Source: a virus
IMG/VR virus record: IMGVR_UViG_3300044630_004371
Location: 1 to 64,000 of that record
Reading direction: 5' to 3' (one strand)
Length of the DNA: 64,000 nt
How positions within the stretch are numbered: position 1 is the stretch's first letter; each line of letters starts with the position of its first letter. Under the pieces are notes generated by a model that was given only the letters and a program-made list of their open reading frames with translations, made no database searches and was not told the DNA's origin. The translations under genes and the position numbers were made by a program. Of the stretch, positions 2,862 through 59,959 are shown in pieces.

Positions 2862-3604
2862 AACAAAAGCCAATAGTACATGCTTTTTTCGTTTGTTATA
2901 ACGAAGAAAATATATTACCTCATTTATTAAATTATTATTCCAGTTTTTGTGAAAAAATAACAATCCTTGATAACAACTCAACTGATAAAAGTTGTGAAAT
3001 AATTGAATCGTTTCCAAACACTGAAATAATCCCATTTGATTCAAATGGTGAATTTCATGATGGGGTTCATGTTAAATTAAAAGACCATGTTTGGAAATCA
3101 AGTGTTGGTTATGCTGATTTTGTTATTTTAGGGGATGCTGATGAATTTTTATATCATGAAAATATGATTGATTTTTTAATAGATTCAAAAGAAAAAGGTA
3201 TCACGTTTTTTAAACCAGAGGGGTATCATATGATTGGTGATGAAGAATTAGAATTATCAGTTGAGGATAATATTTTTGAAAAAGTTAAATACGGTGTTAA
3301 AACACCTGTGTTGGACAAACCGATGATGTTTGATTGTAATAAAATCATAAACATAAATTATGGTTTTGGGTGTCACTCCGCAAATCCTGTGGGTACCGTA
3401 GTTCCATCAATCTATAATGGTTTGAAATTGATACATTATAAATTTTTAGGTTTGAAAGATTATTTGTATAAAAATAAAATTAGGGCTGAAAGGTTAAGCA
3501 AGTTTAACAAAGATAATGGTTTTGGTTTGTATTATATGTTTAGTGAAGAAGAACATATTATTGATTATAAATCTTATATTGATAGGAGGGTTAAAGTGTT
3601 ATAA
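2858..3604 (+). CDS. Glycosyltransferase family 2-like
   Basis: CYNEE, DNNSTD, GDADEF (DxD) motifs. Confidence 0.8.
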   Translation: MKQKPIVHAFFVCYNEENILPHLLNYYSSFCEKITILDNNSTDKSCEIIESFPNTEIIPFDSNGEFHDGVHVKLKDHVWKSSVGYADFVILGDADEFLYHENMIDFLIDSKEKGITFFKPEGYHMIGDEELELSVEDNIFEKVKYGVKTPVLDKPMMFDCNKIININYGFGCHSANPVGTVVPSIYNGLKLIHYKFLGLKDYLYKNKIRAERLSKFNKDNGFGLYYMFSEEEHIIDYKSYIDRRVKVL

Positions 3605-34914: not shown

Positions 34915-35637
34915 TTAATCGGTCAAAAAATTATCAAGTTTATCAGTTAGGTTCTCTTTGATGATAGATTTTTTAATTTCTACGTTCTCTACATAGGGTT
35001 TAGACTCTTCAACATTCCTAAAAATCCATGCGTCTGGTGTTGATGGAGCTGTTACTACGTCCCAGCAGATAATCTCAAAATCATCTTGAACAATTTGTTC
35101 ACCATTTCTACCTTCTTTCAATGAACCAACACCTCTAGATGATACACCAATCTTTATTCTATTTCTCAATAGATTAGCTACTTCATCACCTTTGGTTGAA
35201 ACAATACCGTAATTGATAAAACCAGGTGTCATAAGGATTTCCATTTTACCCATAAGAGTATGAGCTTCCCACCATGTTTCGATAATATTATGTGAAATTC
35301 TATCACCAGCGATAATACTAGATTCTGGGTGGTCTAATTCACCAACAGCACTACGCTCTCTAATTGCTTTTTGATATAGTTCGTTTTGTCTTACAAGGAT
35401 TTCTTTCGGATATATACGTCCATTACGGTTTAGGATACCGTATTTTTGGAGAATAACGTAAACTACTAGTGGTTCGGCAATAACCAATTTACCAGTTTCT
35501 AATTTTCTTAACTCATTGATAAAAGGCTGGTTTCTTGGTTCGTCTGGGCTTATATAGCCAGCATCGTGCTCAATCAATCCACCCCACCCACTTTCACCAC
35601 GTTTTAGTACTTTAAAATCTTTATAATTTATATCCAT
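34915..35637 (-). CDS. gp21: Prohead core protease, T4 gp21-like
   Basis: NRNGRIYP, GELDHP, SHNI, GVSSRGVGS, WDVVTAPSTPDA. Confidence 0.92.
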   Translation of the reverse strand: MDINYKDFKVLKRGESGWGGLIEHDAGYISPDEPRNQPFINELRKLETGKLVIAEPLVVYVILQKYGILNRNGRIYPKEILVRQNELYQKAIRERSAVGELDHPESSIIAGDRISHNIIETWWEAHTLMGKMEILMTPGFINYGIVSTKGDEVANLLRNRIKIGVSSRGVGSLKEGRNGEQIVQDDFEIICWDVVTAPSTPDAWIFRNVEESKPYVENVEIKKSIIKENLTDKLDNFLTD

Positions 35638-37625: not shown

Positions 37626-39689
37626 TTACTCATCCAACATTTTATCAATGTCGTTAATCATTTCGTCAATTTCTTTATTTACCTTGACGTTTTTATCGTA
37701 AATTTTTATTTTTTCTACGTGTTCTTTTGGTGTTGATTTTACTGATTCGATAAGTCTTTCTACAAATCTACCTTGATATTTCTTGGTTCTTTCATTTAAC
37801 TTCTTAGCCAAAACAACCTTTTGTTCTTTAAGTAATTTTTGTATTTTCTTTACTGATTCAGTTACTTCAGTTGGGGTTTCTTCAGCACCAGCTTCTTCAG
37901 CACCAGCTTCTGTTTCGGCAGCACCTTCTTCACCACCAGCTTCTGTAGCTGCTTCGCTTTCACCTTCATCACCAAAATCTAAATCTTCACCGCCAGTTCC
38001 ACCTCCACCAAATGAACCGCCTAGGCCACCACCGCCACCGCCACCGCCGCCGCCACTGCTGCTTTCTCCACCACCTTCTTCACCACCACCATCTCCACCA
38101 CCTTTAAGGGCAAGTTTAAAATCACCATAAACTCTATCTACAATATCAAACATACCAGTGTGTTTTATTACACTAGAAGAGTTGGCCAATTCAGCAGCTG
38201 CTGCTTTTTCCATACGTTGTTCAAGCAAGTCTTGTTTGATTTCATCATCAGACATACCCAAGATATCTCTCTTACCACGAGTCATTGACATAGCACCAAA
38301 TCCGTTTCCAGAATCAGATACCGCATCTTTGTAAAGTGTAACCTTGGTTTGCATGTGTTCAATCTTAAGCATTTCAGCTTGAGTTGATGGATTGTTAAGG
38401 GTAAGTGTAAAATTATCAAAATCTTCTTCAAATCCTAACAAATACAGATGAATGATGGCAATCTTGTTAAATTCTTGTAACATAGCTTGTTGTATTCTGT
38501 TTATAGTTCTAGAAAAACGTATGTCTTGCAATGCAAGGTTTTTACCTTCACCAGTTGTATCATCAAAACCCAAGAATGGCTTAGGAACTCTAAGAGCTGT
38601 AAATAAATTGCTTCTCAAATACTCAATATCCGCAATTTGGTCTAGGTTTGTAGCACCTGGCAAGGTATCAATTGGGTTGGGTGCGTCTTCAGAACGAACT
38701 GGGATAAAATAATCTTGGTCGTTTGAAAGTTGATTATAACGCAAGTCCATTTGACCAGTTTGTGAGTCAATAATAGGCATACGCTTGAATCTATCTGCAA
38801 TTTGGTTTACATATGCTTCAACATCGGCATCATCAATATTACCAACATAGATTTTATATACACGTCTTTCTGGTGCACGAGTTACACGATAAACCAACAT
38901 TGAATCCTCAGAAAGGATAAGTTGTTTCCATATACGTCTAGCCTTTTCCAATACTGAAGTACCATAAGGTAAACGTCTGTCGTCTCCCAACAATCTGAAG
39001 TGAGCTATTTGCCATGAGTTGAACTCAACGTCACGTCCTCTCCAAAAAAATTTGGTTTTATCAGCTGTTGCTACTTGGCTGTTGACTGTCTCACGACCAG
39101 TAATCATATCAAACAAACCACTTTCTCTACGTTCCATTTCGTAGTTAGGCATTTGCTTGGCACCCAAGATACCATGTTTTTCATCAATATTTAAGTAAAC
39201 GAAATTATCACCATACTTGCATGTGTTTCTTGTCCACATAGGCAAAGACACATGTAAATCTAGTCTATTAAAAAATAAATCTTCAAGAATACCCTTTACA
39301 CGTTTGCTATCTGAATATATGTTCATGATTCTACCCTTGTCATTTAGAGTAGAAGATTCTTCCATCATTACATCTAAAGCAGCTGCGATGGTTGGATAAA
39401 ACTCCATGGCCTCAAAATCTGAATAAGAACCAATACGTGTTGTTTCATAGTTGATGGATTGTTGAAATAATCCATTTTCAACCTTCTTCCACATTTGCCC
39501 TAGATACTTGTTTTGTTGTGCTTGTAACTTGGTTCTTTCAAATTCAGCCTTGTTGTCTGTTTTAAGCAGTACATCATTGCCAATATTGTATCTTTGTGGT
39601 TGCGGTTGGTTTTGTTTTACTTTAGGTCCATCTGGTCCGATAATTTGACCAAGCTTCTGGAAGACCGTTAACTTTTGTTTTTCTGCCAT
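37626..39689 (-). CDS. gp20: Portal protein, T4 gp20-like
   Basis: LEKARRIWKQL.L.ED.MLVYRVTRAPERRVYKI.VGN, DYFIP.R, IDTLPG, LF.ALRVP, DIRFSRTI; Gly/Glu-rich tail. Confidence 0.92.
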   Translation of the reverse strand: MAEKQKLTVFQKLGQIIGPDGPKVKQNQPQPQRYNIGNDVLLKTDNKAEFERTKLQAQQNKYLGQMWKKVENGLFQQSINYETTRIGSYSDFEAMEFYPTIAAALDVMMEESSTLNDKGRIMNIYSDSKRVKGILEDLFFNRLDLHVSLPMWTRNTCKYGDNFVYLNIDEKHGILGAKQMPNYEMERRESGLFDMITGRETVNSQVATADKTKFFWRGRDVEFNSWQIAHFRLLGDDRRLPYGTSVLEKARRIWKQLILSEDSMLVYRVTRAPERRVYKIYVGNIDDADVEAYVNQIADRFKRMPIIDSQTGQMDLRYNQLSNDQDYFIPVRSEDAPNPIDTLPGATNLDQIADIEYLRSNLFTALRVPKPFLGFDDTTGEGKNLALQDIRFSRTINRIQQAMLQEFNKIAIIHLYLLGFEEDFDNFTLTLNNPSTQAEMLKIEHMQTKVTLYKDAVSDSGNGFGAMSMTRGKRDILGMSDDEIKQDLLEQRMEKAAAAELANSSSVIKHTGMFDIVDRVYGDFKLALKGGGDGGGEEGGGESSSGGGGGGGGGGLGGSFGGGGTGGEDLDFGDEGESEAATEAGGEEGAAETEAGAEEAGAEETPTEVTESVKKIQKLLKEQKVVLAKKLNERTKKYQGRFVERLIESVKSTPKEHVEKIKIYDKNVKVNKEIDEMINDIDKMLDE

Positions 39690-39745: not shown

Positions 39746-41539
39746 TTATTTGCTTCCGCTAAATAACCACATATATTGACCAGTTGGGTCTTGCATGTTT
39801 TTAGAAACTATTGGGTTAAATTTAGGTTTTTGTGTTGGTAGTTTATTTCTATTTTCTTTGCTAACAAACCCAGTTCCTTTTTCAAGGTCTGTTTGTGTAG
39901 GGTTGGTATTGGCCCCAATCAACCAACTATTTAAAATAGCTTTGGTTTGTTTTTCTAATTTCTCTAGATTTTTAAATGAATGTTCAACCACCCACAAAGC
40001 CATACCCAAAGCCATAAGCAAATCATCATGATAACCTTCCATATGGTCTGGTCTTCCGTTCTTATAGATAAAGGTTTTCATTTCTGAAGTCATTCTAGCT
40101 GAACGAATTTTGATACCATCAGTCCTAATCTTAAACTCAAGATTTGAAATCATTGGTAAACGAACAGAAGTTGCGTGAAAACCTGGAATTTTATTCTCCT
40201 TGTTGTAAGTCGCCAATTCTCTTTGTCTAGCTGATAAAATTTTACCGTTTTGATTATCATAATGAAGCCTCTTGTAATCAAATTCGAGCAATTTCAATAC
40301 GGTAGAAACACCCATACCACCAGTAACATCGACTACCGTATATGCTTTGTACATTTCACCATATTCTTCTACCAATTGAGCCAACAAATCTGGTTGAATC
40401 TTACCTTGATATTCCATTACTTGTTCCATGGTAGTAAAGTCTACCACAACAATAGTAGAAGAATCCTCCCCATCACCTCTGGATACGTCAACGCCCATAA
40501 CATATTGGTGTCCCTCTTGAGGAAGTTCCCATATCCATGTTTCGTTTTCACCTCCCTTGGTAATCACAGGGTCTTTTACGTTGTTTTTATTTTGTAAATC
40601 AATATACTGTTCGTCAATAACGTTACCACCAGAACCAATAAATGATACATCCAATTCTTGTGCAATCATCTTGGCATCGTTGTTCATACCACGACACATT
40701 TCTTCATACCATGATGAAGTAGGTTTCCACCCATCTTCTAGTCTGTTTTTATAAGATTGAAATGTAAATTCTACCTCTTCTTCAATTAACTCATCTTTCA
40801 ACCACTTTAAATCTTTATTGTAACGCAAATCTTCATACCATTTCATTTCAATGATGTTGAAGTTGTTTTCTTTTTTCTTGGCTTGGTCGTATGTTTTGTA
40901 ATACAAAGCATCCATACCACGTGGTGTAGAAATAAGAGTTGCTTTGCCACCAGTACCCAATGCAGTCAAAGCGGCACCGAATACTTCAGCACCATTATCA
41001 ATATACGCAGCCTCATCCATTACAAGATATGTAGGTGTAAAACCACGCAACGCATCTTTTGATGTAGCAACCGCTTTTACACGACTACCGTTAGGGAGTT
41101 TAATCTCTTTTTTGGAATCTGTAAGGAAAATACTCTTGGATTCATTTTTAGCATTACCATAATATTCATCACCCCAAACCCATCTTGGTAATTGAGATAG
41201 AAAATCTTTAATCTTGGCAAGGAATTCAAACGCCAATTCTTGTTTGTTGGCGATGATAAGAACCGCTTCTGGGTTTTCGGAATCAGCAAAACCAACCTTT
41301 ATTGACATATATGCAGCTGTTGTAGTAGATACACCAGCCTGTCTAGGTTTTGTGATAAGGTTAAATCTATGTTTATCGTAAGCGTATATTATTTCTTTTT
41401 GTCTAGGAAATAGTCTGAAGGGAACAAAACCCTCTTGAGTTTTATCAAATGTTTCCAAATAAGTTTCAATCGCATAGATTGGACTCGTCAAAGATTTGGC
41501 GTATTCTTTAAAAATCTCTTCTTTAGTTAAATTACTCAT
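39746..41539 (-). CDS. terL: Terminase large subunit, T4 gp17-like
   Basis: KPRQAGVST Walker A, VMDEAA Walker B, ISTPRG, GVDVSRGDGED, HDDLLMA. Confidence 0.93.
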   Translation of the reverse strand: MSNLTKEEIFKEYAKSLTSPIYAIETYLETFDKTQEGFVPFRLFPRQKEIIYAYDKHRFNLITKPRQAGVSTTTAAYMSIKVGFADSENPEAVLIIANKQELAFEFLAKIKDFLSQLPRWVWGDEYYGNAKNESKSIFLTDSKKEIKLPNGSRVKAVATSKDALRGFTPTYLVMDEAAYIDNGAEVFGAALTALGTGGKATLISTPRGMDALYYKTYDQAKKKENNFNIIEMKWYEDLRYNKDLKWLKDELIEEEVEFTFQSYKNRLEDGWKPTSSWYEEMCRGMNNDAKMIAQELDVSFIGSGGNVIDEQYIDLQNKNNVKDPVITKGGENETWIWELPQEGHQYVMGVDVSRGDGEDSSTIVVVDFTTMEQVMEYQGKIQPDLLAQLVEEYGEMYKAYTVVDVTGGMGVSTVLKLLEFDYKRLHYDNQNGKILSARQRELATYNKENKIPGFHATSVRLPMISNLEFKIRTDGIKIRSARMTSEMKTFIYKNGRPDHMEGYHDDLLMALGMALWVVEHSFKNLEKLEKQTKAILNSWLIGANTNPTQTDLEKGTGFVSKENRNKLPTQKPKFNPIVSKNMQDPTGQYMWLFSGSK

Positions 41540-43959: not shown

Positions 43960-44356
43960 GATTTTGTTTGTTATAATTTAGTATTAGGTCTTTTTCATAT
44001 AGTTTACCTTCAACACTCTTCAAAGGCTCACCAAATTTAAAACAAAGTCTTTTATCTGGGTAAGAATCATAAACGTTTATGTTCTCCCACGCCAAAGCTA
44101 TAACATCATCTACCGCATCCCAAACAGCGAACGTGTCACTATTTTGTATTACGTCCAATTTTAATTCTGATTCCAAACGACCAACTTTTTTAATAAAGTG
44201 TTCGTGTGGTGCTTCTGGTCGGCCAGAGGCTGGGAAAGTATCCCATTCATTTCCATCAATATTTTTGGTCGTATCAGAAAAGATAAATTCATAAAGATAA
44301 TCACCTTTATAATCTTTACCAACCATGTTTACATATATTAAAAATAGGTCTTTCAT
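43949..44356 (-). CDS. Hypothetical protein
   Basis: Coupled ORF (YEFIFS, DAVDDVIALAWE). Confidence 0.7.
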   Translation of the reverse strand: MKDLFLIYVNMVGKDYKGDYLYEFIFSDTTKNIDGNEWDTFPASGRPEAPHEHFIKKVGRLESELKLDVIQNSDTFAVWDAVDDVIALAWENINVYDSYPDKRLCFKFGEPLKSVEGKLYEKDLILNYNKQNHEQ

Positions 44357-46977
44357 TAACCGATATACATGTTTAATTCATAGTTACCACCATCCATTCT
44401 ATAAATTTGAATATTTAAAGACTTTCTTTGTGGCATACCATCCTTTGTTAGTTCTTTGTGTAATCTTTCTGTATGACCATAAGGTACGTGTTGAACATCG
44501 TTCATATCAAACTCAACCCCATCGTAACCTCTATTGATAGCATAACCTCTAACTGCATCCAAAGCACTAGAAAGAGTCTTGTGGTATGTCTCATAATCAA
44601 ATTTACCCTCTTTAACAGCTTTTGGGTCTGGTTGAGTGCTGGGCATTGGTAGGAAAGGTTTATCCTTTCTACTTGGTTGTCTTACAGGTTGTTCTGCTGG
44701 TTTAGTTGTTGGTTTTACAACTGGTTCTGTTACTGGTTGATTCATAGTGTCTTCTTGATTAAAAGATTCATACATCTTCATTTTAATATAATTTTTATCA
44801 AATATACTACTTTTTTTTGATTCTGACAAGTCTTTTTCAACAATTTTAGACACTGGTTTTTTAGACCACATTCTACATGACCAATATTTAGGTGTTGTTC
44901 TATCTTTGGCTTGAGAACACTTGTGTCTTGCTCTAAAAGATTTTCTTCTTTTTGGATTGTCTCTTTTTATTTCCATATTGGGGTCACCAAAATTGACTTT
45001 TACAACCTTACCAGAACTATTTTTAACAAATACCTTGAATTTCTTAACATCACCTCTCATTGGTTTACCCAATTTTACAGTTCTGCCTTTATATTCAGCT
45101 TCATTCATGGTTGTATTTTGAACACTACCGTATTCATCACTATAACCACCTTGAGTTTCACCATCATAAGAATCAACCTCGGTTTCAATAAAGTGATAAA
45201 CTTCTTCAACATCATCAGCTGAAGTAGCCACATGGTCTAGTGCCCAACCATGACCATCAGATAGAATTGAATCAACTCTAGATGGGTCCATTTCTAACAT
45301 TTCTTTGGCACCATGATGCATGGTTTTTAGGTTTTGCCAAAACATGTAATTATTTGATTCATGTTCGTGTTCCATCATAGGTTCACCATCAGCACCTTCA
45401 TAGTTTATTTGACCTTCCAAGAAATGATAAACTTCTTCAATGTCATCATTTGCAGTAGCCATATGGTCTAGTGCCCAACCATGACCATCAGATAGAATTG
45501 AATCCACTCTATTGCAATCCATTTTCATCAACTCACCAGTTGCATGAACAATTGTTTTAAGGTTAGACCAAAACATGTAATTATTTGTTTCACCCATATT
45601 TTCATTAAGTTCATCTGAAGTATCATAATGTTTTAAGTTTCCTATAGGATATCTTTCACCAGTTTCAGCGTTATATAAAACAATCACCTCTTCACCATCT
45701 TTATTACCAATAAAATAGTGTATGTTATCATTGGTTAAACTCCAATATAAAGTTCTTCCATAATCATCTTCTTCTCTTTTTTGTACTTTATCACCAGAAG
45801 CAGACTCAATAGCTGATTTAACAAAATCAAAACTAATATTTTCATAAACGTTATATTTGGATTCATTTGTTGATTTTTTACCCCATGAATCACCTTTTCC
45901 TTTGGTTTTACAAGCACTAGGTGTTGGTCTGCATGAAGGATACTTGGCTCTGCTTTCACCATCTTCTCTACCACATGGTTTACATTTTCCATCCCTACAT
46001 GTATTGCAATCTACCCAACCCTTGCTACCTTCACCACCTCTTCTAGAAAACCAACCATGCAATCCGCTTTCTTTTTCTTTAGAAAAATCAGTTTTTTTAG
46101 CGGCTTCTTCTATTGATTCATTATGTTTTTTTCTTCCTTGGCAATGTGCTTTTTGACTAAAACCCTTAGGGTTGTCACAATCAATACTTCTTTTATATTT
46201 TTGTGACCATTTTTCATCTAATTGTTCGTCAGTCATGGACTTATAATCACCCATTTCTTTTAAATCTTCCTCCTTAAGCCCTTTCCAAATCTTACCTTTT
46301 CTGCATCTAACAACAGCACCAGAAGCATAAGCAGATGGCCAAACATCATATTTGCTTTTAGCTATTCTTGTGCATCTGTCTGATTCATCTAAAATATCAT
46401 TTGAACCATCTTGAAACATATTGTTTTTCTTAGGGTTAACAAATAAATTATCCATGTTTTCGTAAACATGCAATTCATCCAAACCTTCTTCGTCAGATGG
46501 TTCAGATTCTGGTTCTGGTTCTTCGCTAGGTGTTTCATCAGATGTTTCATCGCTTTCTGGGGCAACATCTTTATCTTTTTGACCAGCAGTTTTAACTTTG
46601 TTTATGATGTCTTTTTGGTCATCAACATCCATTTCAGAAGTGTGAGTTGCTGACAATAACGAATTTATTGAGAACTTTTCTAGTTCAAAATCTGGTTGAC
46701 CTTGTTCTTCAGTATATTTTCTTAGGGATTGTCCTAACTTTCCAGTTAGTTGCTCAATAAATTTCTTTGGGTCTGTTTCTTCATTAGCATCAACACCAGC
46801 ATCAAATGGTTCATCATCAAATGGTTTTTCATTTGAACTTGGTGTTTCACTATCAAATGAAATATCTGCTGGTTCTGCTGGTTCTGCTGGTTCAGTTGTA
46901 GCTGCTGGTTCTGGGGTAGAACCAGCAACTTTTAACTTATATTTTGTTTCTTCAGTTAGACTTTTTTTTTTAACCCT
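44356..46977 (-). CDS. Large modular protein; frame is open 107 codons upstream of the track start and is probably reached by -1 frameshift from 46956..47681
   Basis: Frame open from 46977 (SLTEETKYKLKVAG...DPKKFIEQLTGKLGQSLR) with no ATG until well downstream; string of short Cys-rich/basic modules. Confidence 0.75.
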   Translation of the reverse strand, partial: RVKKKSLTEETKYKLKVAGSTPEPAATTEPAEPAEPADISFDSETPSSNEKPFDDEPFDAGVDANEETDPKKFIEQLTGKLGQSLRKYTEEQGQPDFELEKFSINSLLSATHTSEMDVDDQKDIINKVKTAGQKDKDVAPESDETSDETPSEEPEPESEPSDEEGLDELHVYENMDNLFVNPKKNNMFQDGSNDILDESDRCTRIAKSKYDVWPSAYASGAVVRCRKGKIWKGLKEEDLKEMGDYKSMTDEQLDEKWSQKYKRSIDCDNPKGFSQKAHCQGRKKHNESIEEAAKKTDFSKEKESGLHGWFSRRGGEGSKGWVDCNTCRDGKCKPCGREDGESRAKYPSCRPTPSACKTKGKGDSWGKKSTNESKYNVYENISFDFVKSAIESASGDKVQKREEDDYGRTLYWSLTNDNIHYFIGNKDGEEVIVLYNAETGERYPIGNLKHYDTSDELNENMGETNNYMFWSNLKTIVHATGELMKMDCNRVDSILSDGHGWALDHMATANDDIEEVYHFLEGQINYEGADGEPMMEHEHESNNYMFWQNLKTMHHGAKEMLEMDPSRVDSILSDGHGWALDHVATSADDVEEVYHFIETEVDSYDGETQGGYSDEYGSVQNTTMNEAEYKGRTVKLGKPMRGDVKKFKVFVKNSSGKVVKVNFGDPNMEIKRDNPKRRKSFRARHKCSQAKDRTTPKYWSCRMWSKKPVSKIVEKDLSESKKSSIFDKNYIKMKMYESFNQEDTMNQPVTEPVVKPTTKPAEQPVRQPSRKDKPFLPMPSTQPDPKAVKEGKFDYETYHKTLSSALDAVRGYAINRGYDGVEFDMNDVQHVPYGHTERLHKELTKDGMPQRKSLNIQIYRMDGGNYELNMYIG
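45190..45590. repeat. Internal duplicated module NYMFW...VDSILSDGHGWALDH...EEVYHF (x2)
   Basis: Near-identical ~50 nt cores at ~45232-45280 and ~45463-45511. Confidence 0.85.
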
Positions 46978-47681
46978 TCAGTTAGGTTATTGATAAGTCT
47001 ATCCATGTTTTTAATTGATGTTGAAATGCTAAGTTTTGATTCTTCCATACCTTTCTTTTCACCTCTTAACTTTTTGAAATCATCACTATCCAACTTGCCA
47101 TTTTTATTCATGTCAAGTTTTGATTGATTTCCTTTAAGTTCTTCTCTAGTCATCATTTCATCTATGGCTTTTTCAGCTTCAGAAAGCTCATCTTCTTCTT
47201 CTTCTTCTTCTTCCCACATTGATTGTTGTCCTTCATTGTTTCCTTTACCAGAAAAACCATTGGTTTTCATTTCAGAAAAACCACCAGCACTAGGCATGTT
47301 TTCTGAAATAAGGTTGTCGTTTTCAAATATGTTGATTTCACCTTCAAAGTTATAAGCTTCAGCTAGACTTTTGAATTTAAAACTTAAATGTTTGATGGCC
47401 TTGGCATATGAAGTGTAAACTTCATCTTTTTTGTTCATCAAACCTCCGATATATTTGAAATCTTCAGCAACCAAGTTAGAAGTTTTGGTGGTTTTTTTAA
47501 TAAACCATTCGTGGTTTTCTCTTATGATAGCATAAGCGTTACCGTCTGGACCCATCTTGGTCAATTCAACAACAACATTAGATTGGTTTTCATTAATAGA
47601 TTTGATACCCATTAATTCTTTCATACGTTCATTTATTTGTTGTCCCTTAAGACCAACTGGTGTGATTCTATTATTTTTCAT
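46956..47681 (-). CDS. Hypothetical head-module protein (N-terminal part of putative frameshift fusion)
   Basis: Ends TTA AAA AAA AAA GTC TAA; contains DMNKNGKLDSDD EF-hand-like loop; ATATTTAT motif at 47714-47721. Confidence 0.75.
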   Translation of the reverse strand: MKNNRITPVGLKGQQINERMKELMGIKSINENQSNVVVELTKMGPDGNAYAIIRENHEWFIKKTTKTSNLVAEDFKYIGGLMNKKDEVYTSYAKAIKHLSFKFKSLAEAYNFEGEINIFENDNLISENMPSAGGFSEMKTNGFSGKGNNEGQQSMWEEEEEEEDELSEAEKAIDEMMTREELKGNQSKLDMNKNGKLDSDDFKKLRGEKKGMEESKLSISTSIKNMDRLINNLTEGLKKKV

Positions 47682-48062: not shown

Positions 48063-49058
48063 CTAGTTGCTTAAAGGTGCTTTTATTGTTGGGTGTGATT
48101 GATAATCACCTAATTGTATATCTTCTTCTAATAAGCATCTACAAAATTCATCATTTTTAAATGAATCAAAAATAGCCGCTGCATCTAAAGGTCCTTCACC
48201 ACACTCACCACCTTCATAAGGCCAAAACTCAGTGTTGATGTTTAGGGTTGGTAGTGGATATGGTTCTCTTGCTCTGGTTGGAACCCCCCATGTATCTAAA
48301 CAATATAATATTTTATCATCATCATTTTGTGTATGACCAAAATCTAATAATCCATCATATCCTAGTATATCAATACCATAATTAGTTCTTTCTTCCAAAC
48401 TCAATTCTCTACCAATTTGTTCTTTGGCTTGTTCAACATGATTTGAATATAAATGCACATCACCTAAATTACCAATAAGCTCATCTGGAACCATATTAAC
48501 TGCCTTGGCGATTATTTCAAGTAGCAATCCATAAGAAGCAATATTGAATGGTAAACCTAAGAATGTATCTACTGAACGTTGATTCCACATCAGTGAGATT
48601 GCTCTGGTTGGTATTGTATCTTTGTACTTTTCATAATCCATTCCAATATCTCCGTACTTTTTAATATATAAATCAACTCTTTCTCCTCTATTCAACTCTC
48701 TTGTATAAACTTGAAATCCATAATGACAAGGTGGAAGAACCATTTGGTCGAGCTCGGCTGGGTTCCAAGCTGACACAAGTAGGCGTCTTGAATCTGGGTT
48801 TGTTTTAAGGTCTTGGATTAGGTTTGCGATTTGGTCTGTGTGTGTGAACTCTGTTGAATGTATTTTATAGATACCTTCCGTTTTATCTAATTCATCAACG
48901 TGAATAGTCTTAAATTGTTTCCAACTTCTCCATTGCTTACCATACACTGGCCCGAGGTTACCAAACCTATCAGCAAATTTTTTATCAGTTTTTATTTTTT
49001 CTACAAATTCTTCTTTTGTATAGGGTCTACCCTCTGGATGTAAATGTTCTTTATTCAT
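48063..49058 (-). CDS. thyA: Thymidylate synthase, C-terminal fragment
   Basis: LGPVYGKQWR, PDSRR, LPPCH (catalytic Cys), QRSVDTFLGLPFNIASY, GDVHLYSNH; own ATG at 49058. Confidence 0.9.
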   Translation of the reverse strand: MNKEHLHPEGRPYTKEEFVEKIKTDKKFADRFGNLGPVYGKQWRSWKQFKTIHVDELDKTEGIYKIHSTEFTHTDQIANLIQDLKTNPDSRRLLVSAWNPAELDQMVLPPCHYGFQVYTRELNRGERVDLYIKKYGDIGMDYEKYKDTIPTRAISLMWNQRSVDTFLGLPFNIASYGLLLEIIAKAVNMVPDELIGNLGDVHLYSNHVEQAKEQIGRELSLEERTNYGIDILGYDGLLDFGHTQNDDDKILYCLDTWGVPTRAREPYPLPTLNINTEFWPYEGGECGEGPLDAAAIFDSFKNDEFCRCLLEEDIQLGDYQSHPTIKAPLSN

Positions 49059-49062
49059 AACT

Positions 49063-49806
49063 TTATTTTTTTTTACAATTATCAAAATGATACCTGACCA
49101 TATTTGCCGATTTTTTAGCGGATAAATTACAATGAGGACAAGTAATTATTTCACGATTTTTAATTGATTCTTTTTGTTTTCTAATGCTATCATCACTTCT
49201 TTTACTACCTAATTTTAATTCTGATAATATTTTTTTTGTTTTGTCCGTGTGGTGTTTTCCAAACATAGAGTTTTTTTCTCCTTTTGATGTACCATTAATT
49301 CTTTTAGTTTCCTTTTGTTTATTTATCTGTTCAATCGGTTTTGGAACCCCTTTTTGAGATTCACTAATTTTTTTATTTCTTTCAAGTATGAAAGTGGGAT
49401 TATTTAATCTTGTTTCATTCCACTTGTTTTTCATTGATTCGGAAATTTTTTTTATTCTATTTTCTTTCTCATCTGTCGGTTTGTCACTTTCAGTTTTTCT
49501 TTTCCTTTCATAAATTTCTTTTTTTTGTGGATTATTAGAAATTGTATCTCCCCCATTTCCTCCTAATGCAATATTATAACCTTCTTTTATAGAATTAAAA
49601 TAATTAATCCAATAAACTTCTCTTTCTAACCAAGTTTTTTCATTTTCACATTCTTCAATCACTTCTTTAACAAAGTTATCTTTACCATATTTCACTATAG
49701 CTTGTTTCAATATTTTACCAGAACCAAGATACTTATCGTTGTTGTGTTTATCCTTACCTATATAAATTTTCCCGTTAATCAAATTTGTTGTTTTGTATAT
49801 AATCAT
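49063..49806 (-). CDS. GIY-YIG (Seg-like) homing endonuclease with NUMOD3 and C-terminal zinc finger
   Basis: IIYKTTNLINGKIYIG, YLGSG, GEKNSMFGKHH, CPHC...HFDNC. Confidence 0.9.
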   Translation of the reverse strand: MIIYKTTNLINGKIYIGKDKHNNDKYLGSGKILKQAIVKYGKDNFVKEVIEECENEKTWLEREVYWINYFNSIKEGYNIALGGNGGDTISNNPQKKEIYERKRKTESDKPTDEKENRIKKISESMKNKWNETRLNNPTFILERNKKISESQKGVPKPIEQINKQKETKRINGTSKGEKNSMFGKHHTDKTKKILSELKLGSKRSDDSIRKQKESIKNREIITCPHCNLSAKKSANMVRYHFDNCKKK

Positions 49807-49862
49807 AATAATATCTTTATTAATAAATATACAAAAAAACCAAAAAAACTCAATAAGAATAG

Positions 49863-50180
49863 TTATTTATTTGAATTTTTTTCTAACTTTTCACACTCTT
49901 CCAAATAAGAACGGTAAGCGTCTCCTGTCCAGATATTACAGTCGTTTTCTAATAGATACTCTATTGATGTATCACCGCGTAAAAACCAAATAAGTTCAGT
50001 AACCATTGTTTTAAACGCCATCTTCTTGGTAGTCAACAATGGAAAACCATCACTCATTTTATGACGAATTTGTCTACCAAATACCGATAGCACTTCTCCA
50101 TTTCTGGTTTGTTTCTTTACTCCATTATCTAAGATGTCTTGGAGTAGGTCTGTGTAACTTTTATCTAATGTGTTACTCAT
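49863..50180 (-). CDS. thyA: Thymidylate synthase, N-terminal fragment
   Basis: [44 protein letters not shown]. Confidence 0.9.
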
Positions 50181-51659: not shown

Positions 51660-54173
51660 ATGAATAGAGAGATTTACCCAAAGGTAAAATTGATAATTAC
51701 CCAATCAATGAAGGAGGCCAAGTCTTTTGATGATGTTAAAGTTAGACCAGAACACATAGTTATGTCTATTTTATTAGACGATGACAATGAATGTGTTAAA
51801 ATACTTAAAAAGTTGAATGTAAATACAATAGATTTGTATGATAAAATAAGTGAATATCTTAGGTTAAATGATTTAACACCTAGGGTTATTAATTCGACCA
51901 AAACCAAACTTCCTTTTTCTGATGAAACCAAATCGGTTATAAAAGACTTGGATAAAGAATGTGAAAAAATGAATGATAATATGATAGACACAACACATAT
52001 ATTGTTATCTATCTTATCAAAAAAATTACCATCGACCAAAATATTGAATGAGGTTTATGATATAAATTATAACAGTTTTATGAAAGAAATGAAAAAAATT
52101 AAAGATGGTTTTAAGGGCAACGTATACGGTGCGGCTTACGAAGGGGATGAAGGGGATGAACAAGAATCGTTAAAAAGAAAATCCAAACAAGTTGATGGAA
52201 AAAGCAAAACACCTGTATTAGATAATTTTTGTAGAGATATATCCAAGGCTGTGGATAAAGATGAAATAGACCCAGTTGTTGGTCGTAAAATAGAAATCAA
52301 ACGTGTTTCACAAATTCTATCTAGAAGAAAGAAAAACAATCCAATATTGATTGGTGAACCAGGGGTTGGTAAGAGTTCTATTGTAGAAGGTCTTGCTCAA
52401 CTCATCAAAGATGGCAACGCACCCAGAACACTTATTGGTAAGAAAATATTCATGTTGGACCTAGCATCACTGGTAGCTGGTACCAAATATCGTGGCCAAT
52501 TTGAAGAAAGAATGAAAGCTGTTTTGGAAGAATGTAAAGCCAACCCAGACATCATTTTATTTATTGATGAATTACACACAATCATTGGTGCTGGTAATGC
52601 GTCTGGTTCGCTAGATGCTTCAAACATATTTAAACCAGCGTTGGCACGTGGTGAAATACAAATAATTGGTGCTACTACTCTTGATGAATATCGTGAGAAT
52701 ATTGAAAAAGACGGTGCTTTGACAAGACGTTTCCAACAAGTATTAGTTGAAGAACCTACACTTGAAGAAACCAAAATTATCCTTATGAACATCAAGGATA
52801 AATACGAAAAACATCACAAGGTAAAATATACTGAAGAAGCTATTGATGAGTGTGTTAAATTAGCAGACCGTTATATCACGGAAAGAAGTATGCCAGATAA
52901 AGCTATTGATATCATGGATGAAGCTGGTGCGTCAACCAATGTAACGCTTGAAAAACCAGAAGAAATGAAACAACTTGAAGCTAAAAAGCTTGAAATAAAC
53001 GAAAGAAAGAAAGAAGTTGTTATAAAACAAAAATATGAAGAAGCTGCCAAGCTTAGAGATGAAGAAAAAAAAGTAATTGAAGAGCTTCAAAATGTTATGA
53101 ATAAATGGAACGAAAGACTTGAAAAGAAAACTACCGAAGTTGGTGTTGAATTGATTTCGGAGGTTGTGTCTATGATGACTGGTATTCCTTTGACCAAAAT
53201 TTCTTCTCAAGAAAGCAAACGTCTGATGAATATGGACAAAGAACTCATGGGCAAAATTATTGGCCAAGATGCCGCTGTTAGCAAAGTGGTTAAAGCGATA
53301 AAAAGAAGTAGATTGGGTCTTAAAGATAAAAACAAACCAACAAGCTTTATCTTTATGGGTGGTAGCGGTACTGGAAAAACCCTATTAGCTAAAAAAATAG
53401 CTGAAAAATTATATGGAGATGTTGATTCTTTAGTTAGATTTGATATGAGTGAATACATGGAGAAACATTCCGTTTCAAAATTAATAGGTTCCCCAAATGG
53501 TTATGTTGGTTATGAACAGGGTGGTCAATTAACTGAAAAAATAAGAAGAAAACCGTACTCAATCATTCTATTAGATGAAATTGAAAAAGCACACGAAGAT
53601 GTTTTTAATATATTCTTACAAGTTTTTGATGAAGGTCATTTAACTGATGGATTAGGTAGGAAAGTTAATTTTAAAAATACCATTTTTATTATGACCTCTA
53701 ATATTGGTGTTAAAGAATTAAATTCTTTCGGTTCATCTCTAGGTTTTCAAACTACAGATACTATCTTAAACCAAGAAAATAGAAATAAAAATATACTAGA
53801 AAAAGCTTTAAAAAATAAATTTAAACCAGAATTTTTAAATAGAATTGATGAAATCATTATATTTAAAGGTCTTTCATCAGAAGACATACATAAAATAATT
53901 TATCTTGAGATTGAAAACCTTGAAAAACGTTTATTAGAAATGAATTTTAAGTTAAAAATTTCAAAAGAAGCTGTAGAATATTTAGCAAAACAAGGTTATG
54001 ATGAAGCTTATGGTGCTAGACCAATAGCTAGGGCCATCCAACATTATGTTGAAGATGCAGTGGCCGATGAAATCCTTAACGGAAACATCAAAGAAGGTGA
54101 AACCATAACCATAGGATTTGAAGTTGAAAAAGAACAAATAACCATTAAATCAAACAAAACAAAAACAAAATAA
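51660..54173 (+). CDS. clpC: ClpC-like AAA+ chaperone
   Basis: Clp N-domain, [39 protein letters not shown]-type middle region, [32 protein letters not shown]. Confidence 0.92.
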
Positions 54174-55547: not shown

Positions 55548-56762
55548 ATGCCATATACTCATAGAAAAGTAGGAGACAAACAATGCGTCTATAAAAAATA
55601 CACAGGTTCCAAGGTTGGTTGTACAAAAGGTGATGTGAATAAATATCTAGCCGCATTACACGCCAATGCCAATGAATCAGTAACAGAATCCAACACTTTA
55701 AAAGGTGGCAGTGATACAAAATATCCATACCCTATTTATAAAGGTGATGTATCAACATTAAAAACAGATGGTGAAGGGGTATCTTTTTTCACAAGAGATA
55801 AAGAAGCTGCCGATTACTATACTTCTTCAAGACAACAACAAGGAATAAGTCCTAAAACAAATAGCACATTTAAGGGATATTTACATACAAAAAACCCTTT
55901 GATTGTAGATGCTTTAAAACCAAGTCCTATAGAATTAAAAGACGCAAATGGAAATGTATTAGGTATTTTTGGACAGGGTGATTATATCCAAGCAGTAAAA
56001 GATGCTGGGTATGACGCAATCATAATAAATAAAAAATTCGGCACCCATTTAGATGGATGGGAAATCATCTCGTTCGATAGGAAACAAATAATACCAAAAA
56101 CAATGGATTCAATTACGGAAATTAACAAACTTAAAGGTGGCAAGTCTGATAAAATGTCTGTTGAAAATATAGCAAAAAAGTTTAAGGTATCAGTTGGTAA
56201 AATACAAGCTCAAATACAAAAGGGTATCAAGATTGAAATGGAACATACTTCCGATAAAGAAAAAGCGACAGAAATAGCCATGGACCACGTATCTGAATTC
56301 CCAGATTACTATGATAGACTTATTAAAATGGAAAAGAAAGCCGATAAAAAATGGGCTCTAGATGAAAATAAAAGTCTAATTAAACGTTTATTAAATGAAA
56401 ATTTAAATAAGAGAGAATCTTTAAATAATTTATTATTAAATTTTGGAATGTTAACAACGCTGGGTTTTTCACAAATAACTAAAATGGGTAAAGATGAAGA
56501 AGCAACCAAGGAATTAACTTTAATGATGCAAAACATTAGAAAACCAATAATAAATGGAATGCCATATGTTAAATTAATAGAAAATATAAATGTATTGGTA
56601 AATAATCCAAAATTACTTTCAGCTGTTGTTAATAAAGTTAGAGAATTTTTAATCTACATAAAACCAAGGATAATTAAATATGTTCAAGATAGTGATGTTA
56701 AAACTAATTGGTTGGGGAAAATTGAGAATTTAGAAAAACTATATTTGGAAGTAATAAAATAA
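55548..56762 (+). CDS. Modular protein: ADP-ribosyltransferase-like module + DUF5661-like module + IKRLLNE module
   Basis: YKG...FFT....A..Y...YL..KNPL...GYDAIII...EIISF...QI (ART-PolyVal-like); KGIKIEMEHT.D...A.EIAMDH..E.PDYY. Confidence 0.6.
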   Translation: MPYTHRKVGDKQCVYKKYTGSKVGCTKGDVNKYLAALHANANESVTESNTLKGGSDTKYPYPIYKGDVSTLKTDGEGVSFFTRDKEAADYYTSSRQQQGISPKTNSTFKGYLHTKNPLIVDALKPSPIELKDANGNVLGIFGQGDYIQAVKDAGYDAIIINKKFGTHLDGWEIISFDRKQIIPKTMDSITEINKLKGGKSDKMSVENIAKKFKVSVGKIQAQIQKGIKIEMEHTSDKEKATEIAMDHVSEFPDYYDRLIKMEKKADKKWALDENKSLIKRLLNENLNKRESLNNLLLNFGMLTTLGFSQITKMGKDEEATKELTLMMQNIRKPIINGMPYVKLIENINVLVNNPKLLSAVVNKVREFLIYIKPRIIKYVQDSDVKTNWLGKIENLEKLYLEVIK

Positions 56763-56797: not shown

Positions 56798-58528
56798 ATG
56801 AAAAAAAAAATAAATGAACGTGAAATTGATGGGGATATGGTTATTCATTTCATCAAAATTTTGGAAAAATCAAATATAGTCCCACGTGATTCATATAAAA
56901 ACACAAAATTAATAGAAACGATAACAGCAATCATATCAATGTCTGAAAACGATTTTTATAATTATATAAAGGAAAACCCTAATCGTAATGTTCAAATGAT
57001 TCGAACTGAATTCAATGATTGGAAACAAGTATATGGTAAGATTAGTGAAGGTGTGAAAAATTATCTTGCAACAGCAGCGTTAGGTTTAGGTTTAATGGGA
57101 ACCCCTAACATCACAAAGGGTTCAAATTTAACACAAATAGTTCAAAATCAATCACATAAAATTTTAAACACGGTAAGTTTCGATGCTTATCAACCAACAT
57201 CAAACCCAGATTTAGATTTGGTTCATGGTGCTTTAGGTTCAAATAGGTTACAAGATGATTTTGAAAAAAGAGTTGAACAAGAATTGTCAAGGCAAGTAAA
57301 AAATGGCAATACACCTAGTGTGTCTAATATACAAGTAAAAACATATGTACAAGGTGATAGAATAATAACCAAAGCATCTTGTGATATCATTCAATCTGAG
57401 GATGGAATTGCCTATACACATTTCACAACTAGGGGTTCAATAGGTTCCAATTATGATAAAAGACATGATATCCAAATAAATGGACTAATTAACAGATTAG
57501 AAAACTACTACGGGGGAGTTGCTAAACAAATTGGTAACCCTATTGATATTTCTTTTACATTAAACGGTAGTATTATAACCTATAGACAAAGTTTCTTTGT
57601 TGCATCCGATACCAAAAGTCTAATAAAAATAAATTTTGAAAGTAAAGAAATTATTGGTTCCGATATTAATGATTTGAGAAATAAATTAAATTCGGAAACG
57701 CAAAACATTTATATAGACGTTAACTCTATTAATGTTGATATGAATAATTATAAAATATCCTACAAAATTGGTAATGTTAAAATATATAAAATTTCTTTAT
57801 TATTTGACGATTCTGGTAATTTACAAAATAGATTGAAAAATGTAAAGATACAAAACCAAACCTTTAAAGAAATTAAAGTGGGCAAGGTAGGTAATTTAGA
57901 ATGGGTTGTTGGTTTAATACCTTATGAAGAAAAAGTAAATGAAGGTACCAAATCTTTGATTAAACGTATTATTCGTGAGAAATTTGAAATAGTTAAAAAT
58001 GTCCTTGATATTCAAGAACCATTTGATTCTATGAAAATTATTAAAATTAACGGTAGAAATGTTTATGTGTTATTTGGAAATGTTGATTATTATGAAAATA
58101 AAGAATCGATTCTAGCATTAAAAAGAAAATCTAATGATATCTCCATTAATCACGATAATTATCATAAATTTTTAATAGAAGCAAAAAATAGATTTTTTAG
58201 TATTCCAGAATTAAAAAATGTTGGAACTGTTATCTCAATTGAAACGACAGCCCCGATTACTGATGAATTATCTGATGCGCTTAACCTTCCTTATAAAAAA
58301 CATGGGTTTTTAAAACAAAATTCAAATTTCAAAATGAAAGACGTACCCTTAGATAAACGTTCAGAAGTTAAAAATTTATTTAACCTAAACTTTGATATCA
58401 AAAATAATGAATCAATATGTATTCTAGATGATTTTATAACGACTGGAACATCATTTAAAAATGCGTTTAGTCTATTACCAAACAATGTTGATTCTGTTGG
58501 TGTGTGTTTATTTATTTTAAAAAGCTAA
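56798..58528 (+). CDS. Modular protein with C-terminal phosphoribosyltransferase-like domain
   Basis: ICILDDFITTGTSF PRPP-binding loop; internal ISE-GVKNYLATAALGLGL and VNE-GTKSLIKRIIRE junctions. Confidence 0.6.
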   Translation: MKKKINEREIDGDMVIHFIKILEKSNIVPRDSYKNTKLIETITAIISMSENDFYNYIKENPNRNVQMIRTEFNDWKQVYGKISEGVKNYLATAALGLGLMGTPNITKGSNLTQIVQNQSHKILNTVSFDAYQPTSNPDLDLVHGALGSNRLQDDFEKRVEQELSRQVKNGNTPSVSNIQVKTYVQGDRIITKASCDIIQSEDGIAYTHFTTRGSIGSNYDKRHDIQINGLINRLENYYGGVAKQIGNPIDISFTLNGSIITYRQSFFVASDTKSLIKINFESKEIIGSDINDLRNKLNSETQNIYIDVNSINVDMNNYKISYKIGNVKIYKISLLFDDSGNLQNRLKNVKIQNQTFKEIKVGKVGNLEWVVGLIPYEEKVNEGTKSLIKRIIREKFEIVKNVLDIQEPFDSMKIIKINGRNVYVLFGNVDYYENKESILALKRKSNDISINHDNYHKFLIEAKNRFFSIPELKNVGTVISIETTAPITDELSDALNLPYKKHGFLKQNSNFKMKDVPLDKRSEVKNLFNLNFDIKNNESICILDDFITTGTSFKNAFSLLPNNVDSVGVCLFILKS

Positions 58529-58880: not shown

Positions 58881-59351
58881 TTACCCCCCAATATACTCAT
58901 GACTACCACATAGTCTTTTATTATCAGCGTAATGACCCTTGAATATATTATTATGTGTTATGTCTAATCTAAGTTTTTTATTCTTACTTGTAGGTTTCCA
59001 CAAAGGAGAATTCTCTCGATACCAAACCATTCGTGGATGTGCAGTACGACTAAAATATCTATGACCTTGGTCTATGTGTATCTGACCTATTGCATCTGAA
59101 AATCTAACACCAATCCCCATACCTTGATAATCTGGAAGAATACAAGTTCGATGACCACGCCATGCTTTTTTTAGTGCACCGTTGGGTAAGGTTAGTGTGG
59201 CCCCAAAAGCAACCACTTGGTCTCCCCAAACACCTATATAACATCTGGAAGCTTTGTTTATGTTGCCATCTAAATAGTGATGGTCTTTAAACATTCGCCA
59301 ACTATCATAGTTTGTCCGATATATTTTGATAGTGATTTCTGGTCGGACAAA
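58881..59351 (-). CDS. GNAT acetyltransferase domain (probably reached by -1 frameshift from upstream ATPase)
   Basis: RPEITIKIYRT..W.MFKDHHYL, HRTCILPDYQGMGIG acetyl-CoA-binding motif. Confidence 0.75.
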   Translation of the reverse strand, partial: FVRPEITIKIYRTNYDSWRMFKDHHYLDGNINKASRCYIGVWGDQVVAFGATLTLPNGALKKAWRGHRTCILPDYQGMGIGVRFSDAIGQIHIDQGHRYFSRTAHPRMVWYRENSPLWKPTSKNKKLRLDITHNNIFKGHYADNKRLCGSHEYIGG

Positions 59352-59959
59352 AAAAAACCGTGAAGTAATTCACCAGTATCCGTATTAAGAACCCAATCTG
59401 GTTCCAACCACTCTACAATATCATGATGACATGTTGATATAACAACATTATGTATATCATTGCTTTTGATATACCTAGATAAAGATACACTGGCTGCTTT
59501 GGCCACCGTTCTATCAACAACACTGGTATACTCGTCAATAACAGTCCCTGTCTTAATTTTTCTAGCTAAATCAGCTCTAAATTTTTCACCGTTGGATAAA
59601 ACATTGTAAGGTTTGTACCATGAAGGTATTGTGTTAAAACCAACAGAACCCAATCTATTGATTCCTTCGTCTGGGGTGTCAAAATGTGAAATGATTGATT
59701 TGTTGGTATCCCAAATAGGATATTCTTCTTTTCCAAATTTTTTAAGTATGGTTGATTTACCAGAACCACTAGAACCCACTATTACACCTATTTTAAACGT
59801 GTTTGGAAGACTAGTTGGCATCTTCCATGGGTAGAATCTTGATGTGCCATCAAAGGTACAATCAAATGCTTTTTCACTAGCAGTTATAAATTCATCTCTA
59901 ACAACACTTGAAATCAATGGTTCTGACTCTCTGACTAATTTTTCGATTATATTGTCCAT
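59270..59959 (-). CDS. ABC-type ATPase domain
   Basis: GSSGSGKST, LSNGEKFR, VIDE, STCHHD. Confidence 0.85.
   Translation of the reverse strand: MDNIIEKLVRESEPLISSVVRDEFITASEKAFDCTFDGTSRFYPWKMPTSLPNTFKIGVIVGSSGSGKSTILKKFGKEEYPIWDTNKSIISHFDTPDEGINRLGSVGFNTIPSWYKPYNVLSNGEKFRADLARKIKTGTVIDEYTSVVDRTVAKAASVSLSRYIKSNDIHNVVISTCHHDIVEWLEPDWVLNTDTGELLHGFFLSDQKSLSKYIGQTMIVGECLKTITI

Follow-up and report, generated by a model that had tools for sequence, protein, structure and literature searches.

How can a 2.6-kb reading frame be expressed when its first 107 codons contain no start? The question is raised by a locus on the minus strand of IMG/VR virus record IMGVR_UViG_3300044630_004371, of which we analysed positions 1 to 64,000 (hereafter the window, 64,000 nucleotides (nt) long). 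There, an open reading frame (ORF) of 241 amino acids (aa) has a run of ten A residues (A10) just before its stop codon, and a long start-less frame opens across that run in the -1 register. We propose that an uncultured aquatic T4-like phage lineage uses the run, in one of its core genes, for programmed recoding, and we lean towards slippage of RNA polymerase as the main cause; both proteins, short and long, would be produced. The idea that a slip on the A run gives a product of ~1108 aa beside the 241-aa one had been put forward in an earlier note on this DNA, and it has held up: the run, the -1 offset and the start-less coding extension are kept in every relative examined in which the two parts lie in different frames (hereafter split). 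A slip on poly-A is a known kind of trick; the gene family is previously undescribed.

Anatomy of the gene and the A run

The short ORF begins with an ATG at 47681 and closes with a TAA at 46956-46958. Its 3′ end reads AAC CTA ACT GAA GGG TTA AAA AAA AAA GTC TAA, and under standard decoding the stop comes 3 nt past the run. In the -1 frame, a TGA at 46978-46980 is followed by 873 open codons and a stop at 44356-44358. The end of the 241-aa ORF, the A10 at 46962-46971, this TGA and a frame open to 44356 had all been given in the earlier note, and all were re-derived from the sequence. Because the two stops bound the overlap of the 0 and -1 frames, a change of frame is confined to 22 nt, ten of which are the A run. 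A net change of -1 would join residues 1-240 to 868 more, giving a 1108-aa chain of small modules. The earliest ATG, GTG or TTG in the -1 frame is a TTG at 46656 (codon 108); the first ATG is codon 116.

The 0-frame codons TTA/AAA/AAA/AAA/GTC contain two overlapping in-phase heptamers of the X_XXY_YYZ type, both A_AAA_AAA. Two slip heptamers had been named earlier: A_AAA_AAA is indeed in phase, but A_AAA_AAG is out of phase with the 0 frame.

By itself an A10 is unremarkable here, since the source genome (86,858 bp) has 31% G+C and holds two runs of at least 10, against 8.4 expected under a first-order Markov model. The case therefore rests on relatives, where the conservation of run, phase and ORF overlap goes beyond chance.

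The split layout in relatives

We compared three sets of loci: 80 found with the N-terminal part (N-part), 80 found with the first module of the extension, and a third set of 90 (L218-L307). The 241-aa protein has 783 relatives of near-equal length, and in 161 of the 177 proteins checked the C-terminus lies no more than 10 residues past KKK. Every one of the 80 N-part loci carries an A9-A11 run at the 3′ end of the gene. Behind it, 79 loci have 256-929 open codons in the -1 frame (the remaining locus leaves its contig); in the +1 frame a stop comes within 1-32 codons. Taken with the window, these loci have 76 A10, 3 A9 and 2 A11 runs; across the 62 distinct contexts the figures are 57, 3 and 2.

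The module-anchored set, approached from the other side, agrees. An N-part lies upstream at a -1 offset in 73 of 80 loci, with an A9-A12 run inside the overlap, which in some relatives shrinks to 10 nt, the run alone. Six of the others are cut by a contig end. The last (L122) was considered as an exception to the layout and rejected, its assembly being riddled with homopolymer errors. The third set comprises 57 split loci (52 A10, 3 A9, 2 A11), 14 in-frame loci, 16 duplicates and 3 loci without one part. Among ~190 split loci the shortest run is 9, and the layout persists down to ~42% identity of the N-part. The contrary outcome envisaged in the earlier note, that homologues are all in-frame fusions without the run, did not occur; run and frame offset are kept in the 80 of 80 and 73 of 80 loci just described.

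The run is not simply a product of codon usage. Elsewhere in these genes lysine is encoded by AAA in 84% of cases (4559/5418) and by AAG in 16%, and because AAA reaches only 84% there, an all-AAA triple in every distinct locus goes beyond codon bias. The 0-frame tails and the distances from run to stop differ among loci.

The run in sequence data

The sequencing runs that contain the stretch are lake-water metagenomes. DNA contigs from two of them, X8 (independent) and X1 (possibly the source sample), read A10 with no gaps, and a low-depth RNA contig (X16, depth 2.7) bridges the run as A10. The earlier note had asked whether A10 might be an assembly error for A11; these contigs speak for A10, although minor length variants are invisible in assembled contigs; depth differences were not used. 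The A10 is a selected recoding site and not an assembly error.

Two RNA contigs of a further run, X15 (depths 12 and 23; one study, with unequal variant load), both stop at the A run with two unmatched letters each. This is at most a weak hint of run-length heterogeneity in RNA, and a strain mixture would look the same.

Coding of the start-less extension

Directly past the run, the -1 frame encodes (S/T)L..E.(T/K)KYKLK(L/V) followed by a Pro/Ala linker. The codons of the KYKLK region differ synonymously among the 62 distinct loci. The conserved 82-residue module beyond (Table 1) lies for the most part 5′ of any start codon in the -1 frame. Compared across loci in this way, the extension shows itself as coding from the run onward, start-less though it is. 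The earlier note had described ~107 protein-like codons lacking a start; that description fits, with KYKLK and most of the module lying in this region and the first start at codon 108.

These data bear on the simplest alternative, that there is no recoding at all and the locus holds two genes, the second starting at TTG 46656 or at the ATG of codon 116, or else a broken or mis-assembled gene. Both start codons do exist in the -1 frame. However, codons 108 and 116 come after KYKLK and after most of the conserved module, and the first ATG of the -1 frame wanders between codons 5 and 135 among the N-part loci. Moreover, DNA contigs from the independent run X8 and from X1 read A10, the layout is kept to the same ~42% N-part identity, and relatives with a single ORF exist. 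We give this alternative next to no credence.

A translational bypass of the T4 gene 60 type, with a stop after the run and a hairpin after the stop, was also considered and rejected: the would-be gap codes in the -1 frame, and the stretch past the 0-frame stop varies synonymously and is in frame in one-ORF relatives. The KYKL motif may resemble the nascent-peptide signal of T4 gene 60, but a preprint searched for it did not contain that string.

In-frame relatives

In a marine sister clade the N-part, a KKVIKV peptide and the module form one ORF of 549-629 aa. The junction has no run of 9 or more, and KKVIKV occupies the position of KYKLK. All 14 in-frame loci of the third set belong to this clade. 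Among its members is a contig catalogued with a Prochlorococcus single-cell genome; a scan of genome contigs for relatives yielded one locus and gives no basis for naming a host.

A shorter run, A8, stands at the junction (QKKV) in 8 of the 14 in-frame loci and is absent in the other 6. L217 is among the eight, and in it (3425-3460) both other frames stop 1-3 codons from the A8. Slippage at the marine A8 could yield a short form from a long default.

A second kind of in-frame protein appears in databases. About 9 of ~850 database proteins read in frame through KKK(S/T/I/R), as an A11 would yield. The family comprises 914 clusters at 50% identity, and among the best 150 of these 108 end in KKK plus at most 10 residues, 14 contain the module and 28 end otherwise. 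The module is reached through a KKK junction in 8 of those 14 and without one in 6; an in-frame KKK(S/T/G/D/I/R) junction is present in 8 of the 150 cluster representatives examined.

Such proteins are what one would expect if the run were a contingency locus at the DNA level, where replication slippage keeps A10 and A11 genomes in the population and only the latter make the long product; long homopolymers are hypermutable, according to the excerpted text of Baranov et al. 2005 (PMC1088944). Nevertheless, the in-frame proteins with a KKK junction may be homopolymer miscalls (the proteins alone were inspected), assemblies are nearly always split, and none of the loci in which both parts were found combines an in-frame junction with a run of at least 9. 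The extension also stays open and conserved, which requires expression from the split allele. We regard a contingency locus as very unlikely.

A conserved hairpin downstream of the run

Downstream of the run the messenger RNA can fold into a hairpin (Table 1). Its core has a predicted energy of -19.9 kcal/mol (z -7.0; none of 200 shuffles folds as well), which becomes -22.2 with the outer helix. The hairpin lies 24 nt (outer helix) or 31 nt (core) past the run, so that the geometry given earlier, 13 bp at ~31 nt, is exact, and the structure is kept in relatives. There its 5′ base falls 15-136 nt past the run (median 34, interquartile range 30-40.5, n=60), in most cases 7-14 nt into the KYKLK codons, with inner stems that are quite unlike one another. 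In three distinct loci hairpin and KYKLK motif are retained together 83-113 nt from the run.

Three comparisons bear on selection for the fold. The 80 nt past the run are more stable than shuffles (mean z -2.8; 35 of 62 loci below -2) when set against a control stretch 300 nt further on (mean z -1.0; 10 of 61 below -2). Synonymous recoding, which preserves the protein, weakens the fold from a mean of -19.0 to -11.5 kcal/mol, and at most 5% of recodings match the stability of the real sequence in 53 of 59 loci; the same test 120 codons on gives z -0.09. Finally, the best local fold has a median of -17.9 kcal/mol in 61 split loci and -8.5 in 6 in-frame loci, although 5 of the 61 fold more weakly than the strongest in-frame locus. 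RNAalifold on a MAFFT alignment of 57 hairpin regions returned no pairs, and the inner stems cannot be aligned by position; structural support therefore comes from the synonymous-recoding test rather than from covariation. On this comparative evidence the hairpin is real, its structure conserved under selection at the RNA level.

Its position restricts what it can do. It is too distant and too variably spaced to serve as a classical frameshift stimulator, and a polymerase still on the run is beyond its reach, the hairpin being downstream. On the opposite strand (46903-46927, plus), the same sequence reads as a hairpin with a T-rich tail behind it, which is complementary to the KYKLK codons, and was flagged as terminator-like.

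Polymerase or ribosome

Two mechanisms could turn the run into a long product. In the one to which we lean, polymerase slippage, which the earlier note had named as the alternative to a ribosomal slip, nascent RNA would slip against the template on the ten-A tract, leaving a share of transcripts with A11 (or A8). Ribosomes would decode these normally and make the long product, and transcripts of other run lengths would end translation within a few codons. Purposeful transcriptional slippage is recognized, in the excerpted text of Baranov et al. 2005 (PMC1088944), by a run of 9 A/T whose length and ORF overlap are conserved among homologues. Here the coding sense strand carries A10 in the window and A9-A12 in split relatives, at or above the ~9 named there. 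Length, overlap and protein extension are all conserved (57 of 62 contexts A10; -1 ORF in 80 of 80; module identity 72-96%).

The second mechanism, ribosomal -1 frameshifting, is possible but in our view doubtful as the main cause. All transcripts would be A10, and some ribosomes would re-pair tandem Lys-tRNAs on A_AAA_AAA, perhaps helped by the hairpin in an unorthodox way such as ribosome queuing. The X_XXY_YYZ heptamer is in phase twice over, the product would be the same as from an A11 transcript, and the split clade has a hairpin under RNA-level selection that the in-frame clade lacks; A-rich heptamers are, moreover, classic bacterial shift sites (PMC1088944, as excerpted). Against it stands the spacing, since the hairpin starts 15-136 nt (median 34) past the run, and in three distinct loci is kept with KYKLK at 83-113 nt. 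The canonical spacer between a bacterial -1 frameshift heptamer and its stimulatory structure is 5-9 nt. The run is never 7 or 8 A's long, though the heptamer would survive, and A_AAA_AAG, the site that is efficient in E. coli, is out of phase. A Shine-Dalgarno-like stimulator is not enriched upstream either: 9 of 62 loci have GGAG, GAGG or AGGA in the 20 nt upstream, compared with 7, 5 and 5 of 62 at control positions.

We favour the polymerase over the ribosome because the run is never shorter than 9, though 7 would suffice for tandem tRNA slippage, and because we see no structure upstream, no Shine-Dalgarno-like enrichment and no structure at the canonical downstream distance. The search for nascent-RNA structure before the run, of the kind that would stimulate slippage by a stem-loop, gave none (mean z -0.4).

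A more speculative idea, which we think improbable, is that slip site and distal hairpin form one device that reads the frame. Ribosomes on A10 transcripts would stop short of the hairpin, which would then fold and either mark the end of a stable short-form message or halt the polymerase; ribosomes on A11 transcripts would traverse the hairpin and hold it open. If true, the phage would control at the RNA level in what ratio cargo-carrying and plain copies of one head-internal protein are made, and the variable C-terminal modules would act as an exchangeable payload, injected together with the DNA.

Several points weigh against polymerase slippage and the wider proposal built on it. The loci share ancestry, so that their counts are not independent events, and the difference between in-frame and split clades is one contrast only. 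The conserved length of A10 counts for less than it seems, because it is partly imposed by the frame, which tolerates only changes of 3. X16 (depth 2.7), the only RNA contig across the run, has A10. The in-phase A_AAA_AAA, present twice, makes a ribosomal -1 slip chemically possible, with an identical protein as the outcome. The hairpin follows the split layout and is absent in the 6 in-frame loci, and it may be a recoding signal of an unexplained kind. Lastly, phi-x-E cleavage and the site preference of the gp21-type protease, which enter the reading of the products below, are assumed to apply here.

Genome context and probable function

The source genome encodes a T4-type portal, a large terminase (TerL), a Gp23-family capsid protein and a gp21-family prohead protease. 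The slip gene is preceded by thyA and a small ORF and followed by three unknown ORFs, TerL and the portal gene. No tail genes adjoin it, and the earlier note was right to place it outside the position of the tail-chaperone frameshift. The order g85 - slip gene - g135 - g342 - g432 - TerL is kept in 61-80 of 80 loci.

Table 1. Positions of the recoding locus and of related features in the window.
Feature	Positions	Strand	Details
0-frame ORF, short product	46956-47681	minus	241 aa; C-terminus ...LTEGLKKKV; AAGGA 7 nt 5′ of ATG
A10 run, proposed slip site	46962-46971	minus	first A is the third base of TTA, then AAA x3
Interval of the frame change	46956-46980	minus	limits: -1-frame TGA 46978-46980, 0-frame TAA 46956-46958
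-1-frame ORF	44356-46977	minus	868 codons from AGT at 46960-46962, the extension of the putative 1108-aa long product
KYKLK codons, first conserved peptide of the extension	46930-46944	minus	61 of 62 distinct loci by regular expression; the 62nd has TYKLK
mRNA hairpin	46894-46937	minus	core of 13 bp (one G-U) at 46900-46930, plus a 4-bp outer helix
First module of the extension, PFDAGV..DPKKFIEQLTGKLGQSLRKY..EKFxINS..SATHTSEMD	46582-46827	minus	82 residues, 72-96% identity in 80 loci
Large terminase	39746-41539	minus	downstream of the slip gene
T4-type portal	37626-39689	minus	downstream of the slip gene
T4 gp21-type prohead serine protease, proposed processing enzyme	34915-35637	minus	PF03420, 85 bits; phrog_207

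Homology says little about either part. Pfam returned no family for the N-part or the extension, and PHROGs returned for the two parts two families of unknown function and nothing else. Non-significant EF-hand rows (E 0.25-0.88) were all that a PDB profile search returned, phmmer with the extension gave no match, and the protein atlas gave none at 0.9 or above. A tblastn search with the N-part and the module found no match in 50,697 phage records, and the gene is thus absent from the cultured phages of that collection; with blastn, only later modules were matched, as short pieces in Pelagibacter, Synechococcus and Flavobacterium phages. A search of full-text literature turned up neither the gene family nor the site.

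The long product is rich in one motif. It contains [LIVM]-x-E-[SAGTNH] 19 times, compared with 6.8 ± 2.4 in shuffles, and none of 2000 shuffles reaches 19. We take this motif (phi-x-E in short) to be the site preference of gp21-type proteases. One such site, LTE, stands directly before GLKKK, and in relatives sites of this type stand directly before the NNYMFW, YKGKKV and KLSI modules. Calling the product a head protein, as was done earlier, reflects gene position and these protease-site-like motifs rather than homology. On these grounds, and with a gp21-family protease encoded nearby, the gene probably encodes a head-internal polyprotein processed by the head protease, the long form carrying extra modules. 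Both forms would enter the prohead, where the gp21-type protease would cut at phi-x-E, and the long form would bring cargo modules into the head at a set proportion.

Some further observations concern the neighbourhood and the rest of the genome. Thymidylate synthase is in pieces (48063-50180); an ORF resembling a GIY-YIG/NUMOD3 homing endonuclease (49063-49806) immediately precedes the ThyA C-part (48063-49085) and overlaps it, and this C-part matches positions 77-226 only of the PF00303 profile. A second module-chain protein, encoded at 55548-56762, has a DUF5661 match (51 bits) and a sub-threshold match to ART-PolyVal (22.7 bits; cut-off 31.2). A large gene resembling ATP-dependent proteases lies at 51660-54173 (phrog_4871, 833 bits). 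The only other run of at least 10 in the 86.9-kb genome is an A10 at 56801-56810, right after the ATG of the ORF at 56798-58528 (ATG AAA AAA AAA ATA). A T9 run at 59349-59357 (in the minus-strand sense) lies inside a P-loop ATPase-like ORF (59270-59959), the next ORF (58881-59294) being GNAT-like; it is possibly a second slip site of the same phage.

Implications

Proven cases of programmed slippage on poly-A are few, all in bacterial genes and insertion sequences. In the widespread, uncultured lineage of T4-like phages from lakes and the sea considered here, it would be a constant property of a core gene. The long product is missing from annotations because gene callers split or shorten the gene. 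With run and hairpin in the split clade and neither in the one-ORF clade, the family offers a clean system in which to study the origin of a slip site and the role of a distal hairpin. If the products are head cargo, the slip site would set the payload per capsid.

Comparison with known systems

In their proposed fate, the products recall the internal proteins and Alt of T4, which carry a capsid targeting sequence and are cut by gp21. A gp21-family protease is likewise encoded nearby, and phi-x-E sites are enriched and precede modules. The present proteins differ in having no sequence similarity to any T4 protein, and we know of no slip site used by T4 for its internal proteins or Alt. The polyvalent proteins were considered as a class and rejected: neither part has a marker domain among the Pfam (no families) and PHROGs (two families of unknown function) results.

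The best-known phage recoding site is the conserved G/GT frameshift of the tail assembly chaperones, which yields a short protein and, in a low and set proportion, a C-terminally extended one, and lies between the tail tube and tape measure genes. The present gene, by contrast, stands three ORFs upstream of TerL with no adjoining tail genes, and its proteins are unrelated.

The -1 frameshifts of E. coli dnaX and IS911 share with our locus an A-rich site, the -1 direction and, if both forms are made here, two products per gene. A stem-loop follows those sites at a few nt and a Shine-Dalgarno-like element precedes them; here neither stimulator is found at such a position, and the AAG heptamer is out of phase.

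Closer parallels involve the polymerase. In the excerpted text of PMC1088944, Thermus thermophilus dnaX (tau/gamma) and the orfA-orfB fusions of insertion sequences (IS) slip on A9. The likeness lies in a sense-strand run of at least nine A's with conserved length and overlap, and the IS slip, as proposed here, leads to a longer fusion. In dnaX, however, slippage gives the shorter product, and the IS proteins are transposases, whereas here an A10 in a phage structural-module gene precedes a 2.6-kb extension.

The nearest counterpart is tssM1 of Citrobacter rodentium, for which the excerpted account (PMC4256274) describes an experimentally proven case: an A11 precedes a premature stop, A's added by the polymerase give the long form, the short form is the default, and both forms and their ratio (~20-25% long) are required. 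The phage gene likewise has a poly-A run before a stop, with a short default and a putative long form. No conserved downstream hairpin figures in that excerpted account of tssM1, and the phage site is a predicted one. In the same source, tssM3 of Y. pseudotuberculosis has the opposite default to tssM1, much as the marine clade encodes both parts in one ORF. The bacterial site belongs to a secretion-system gene and is described there for very few tssM genes, whereas the phage site is present in every relative examined of a large clade.

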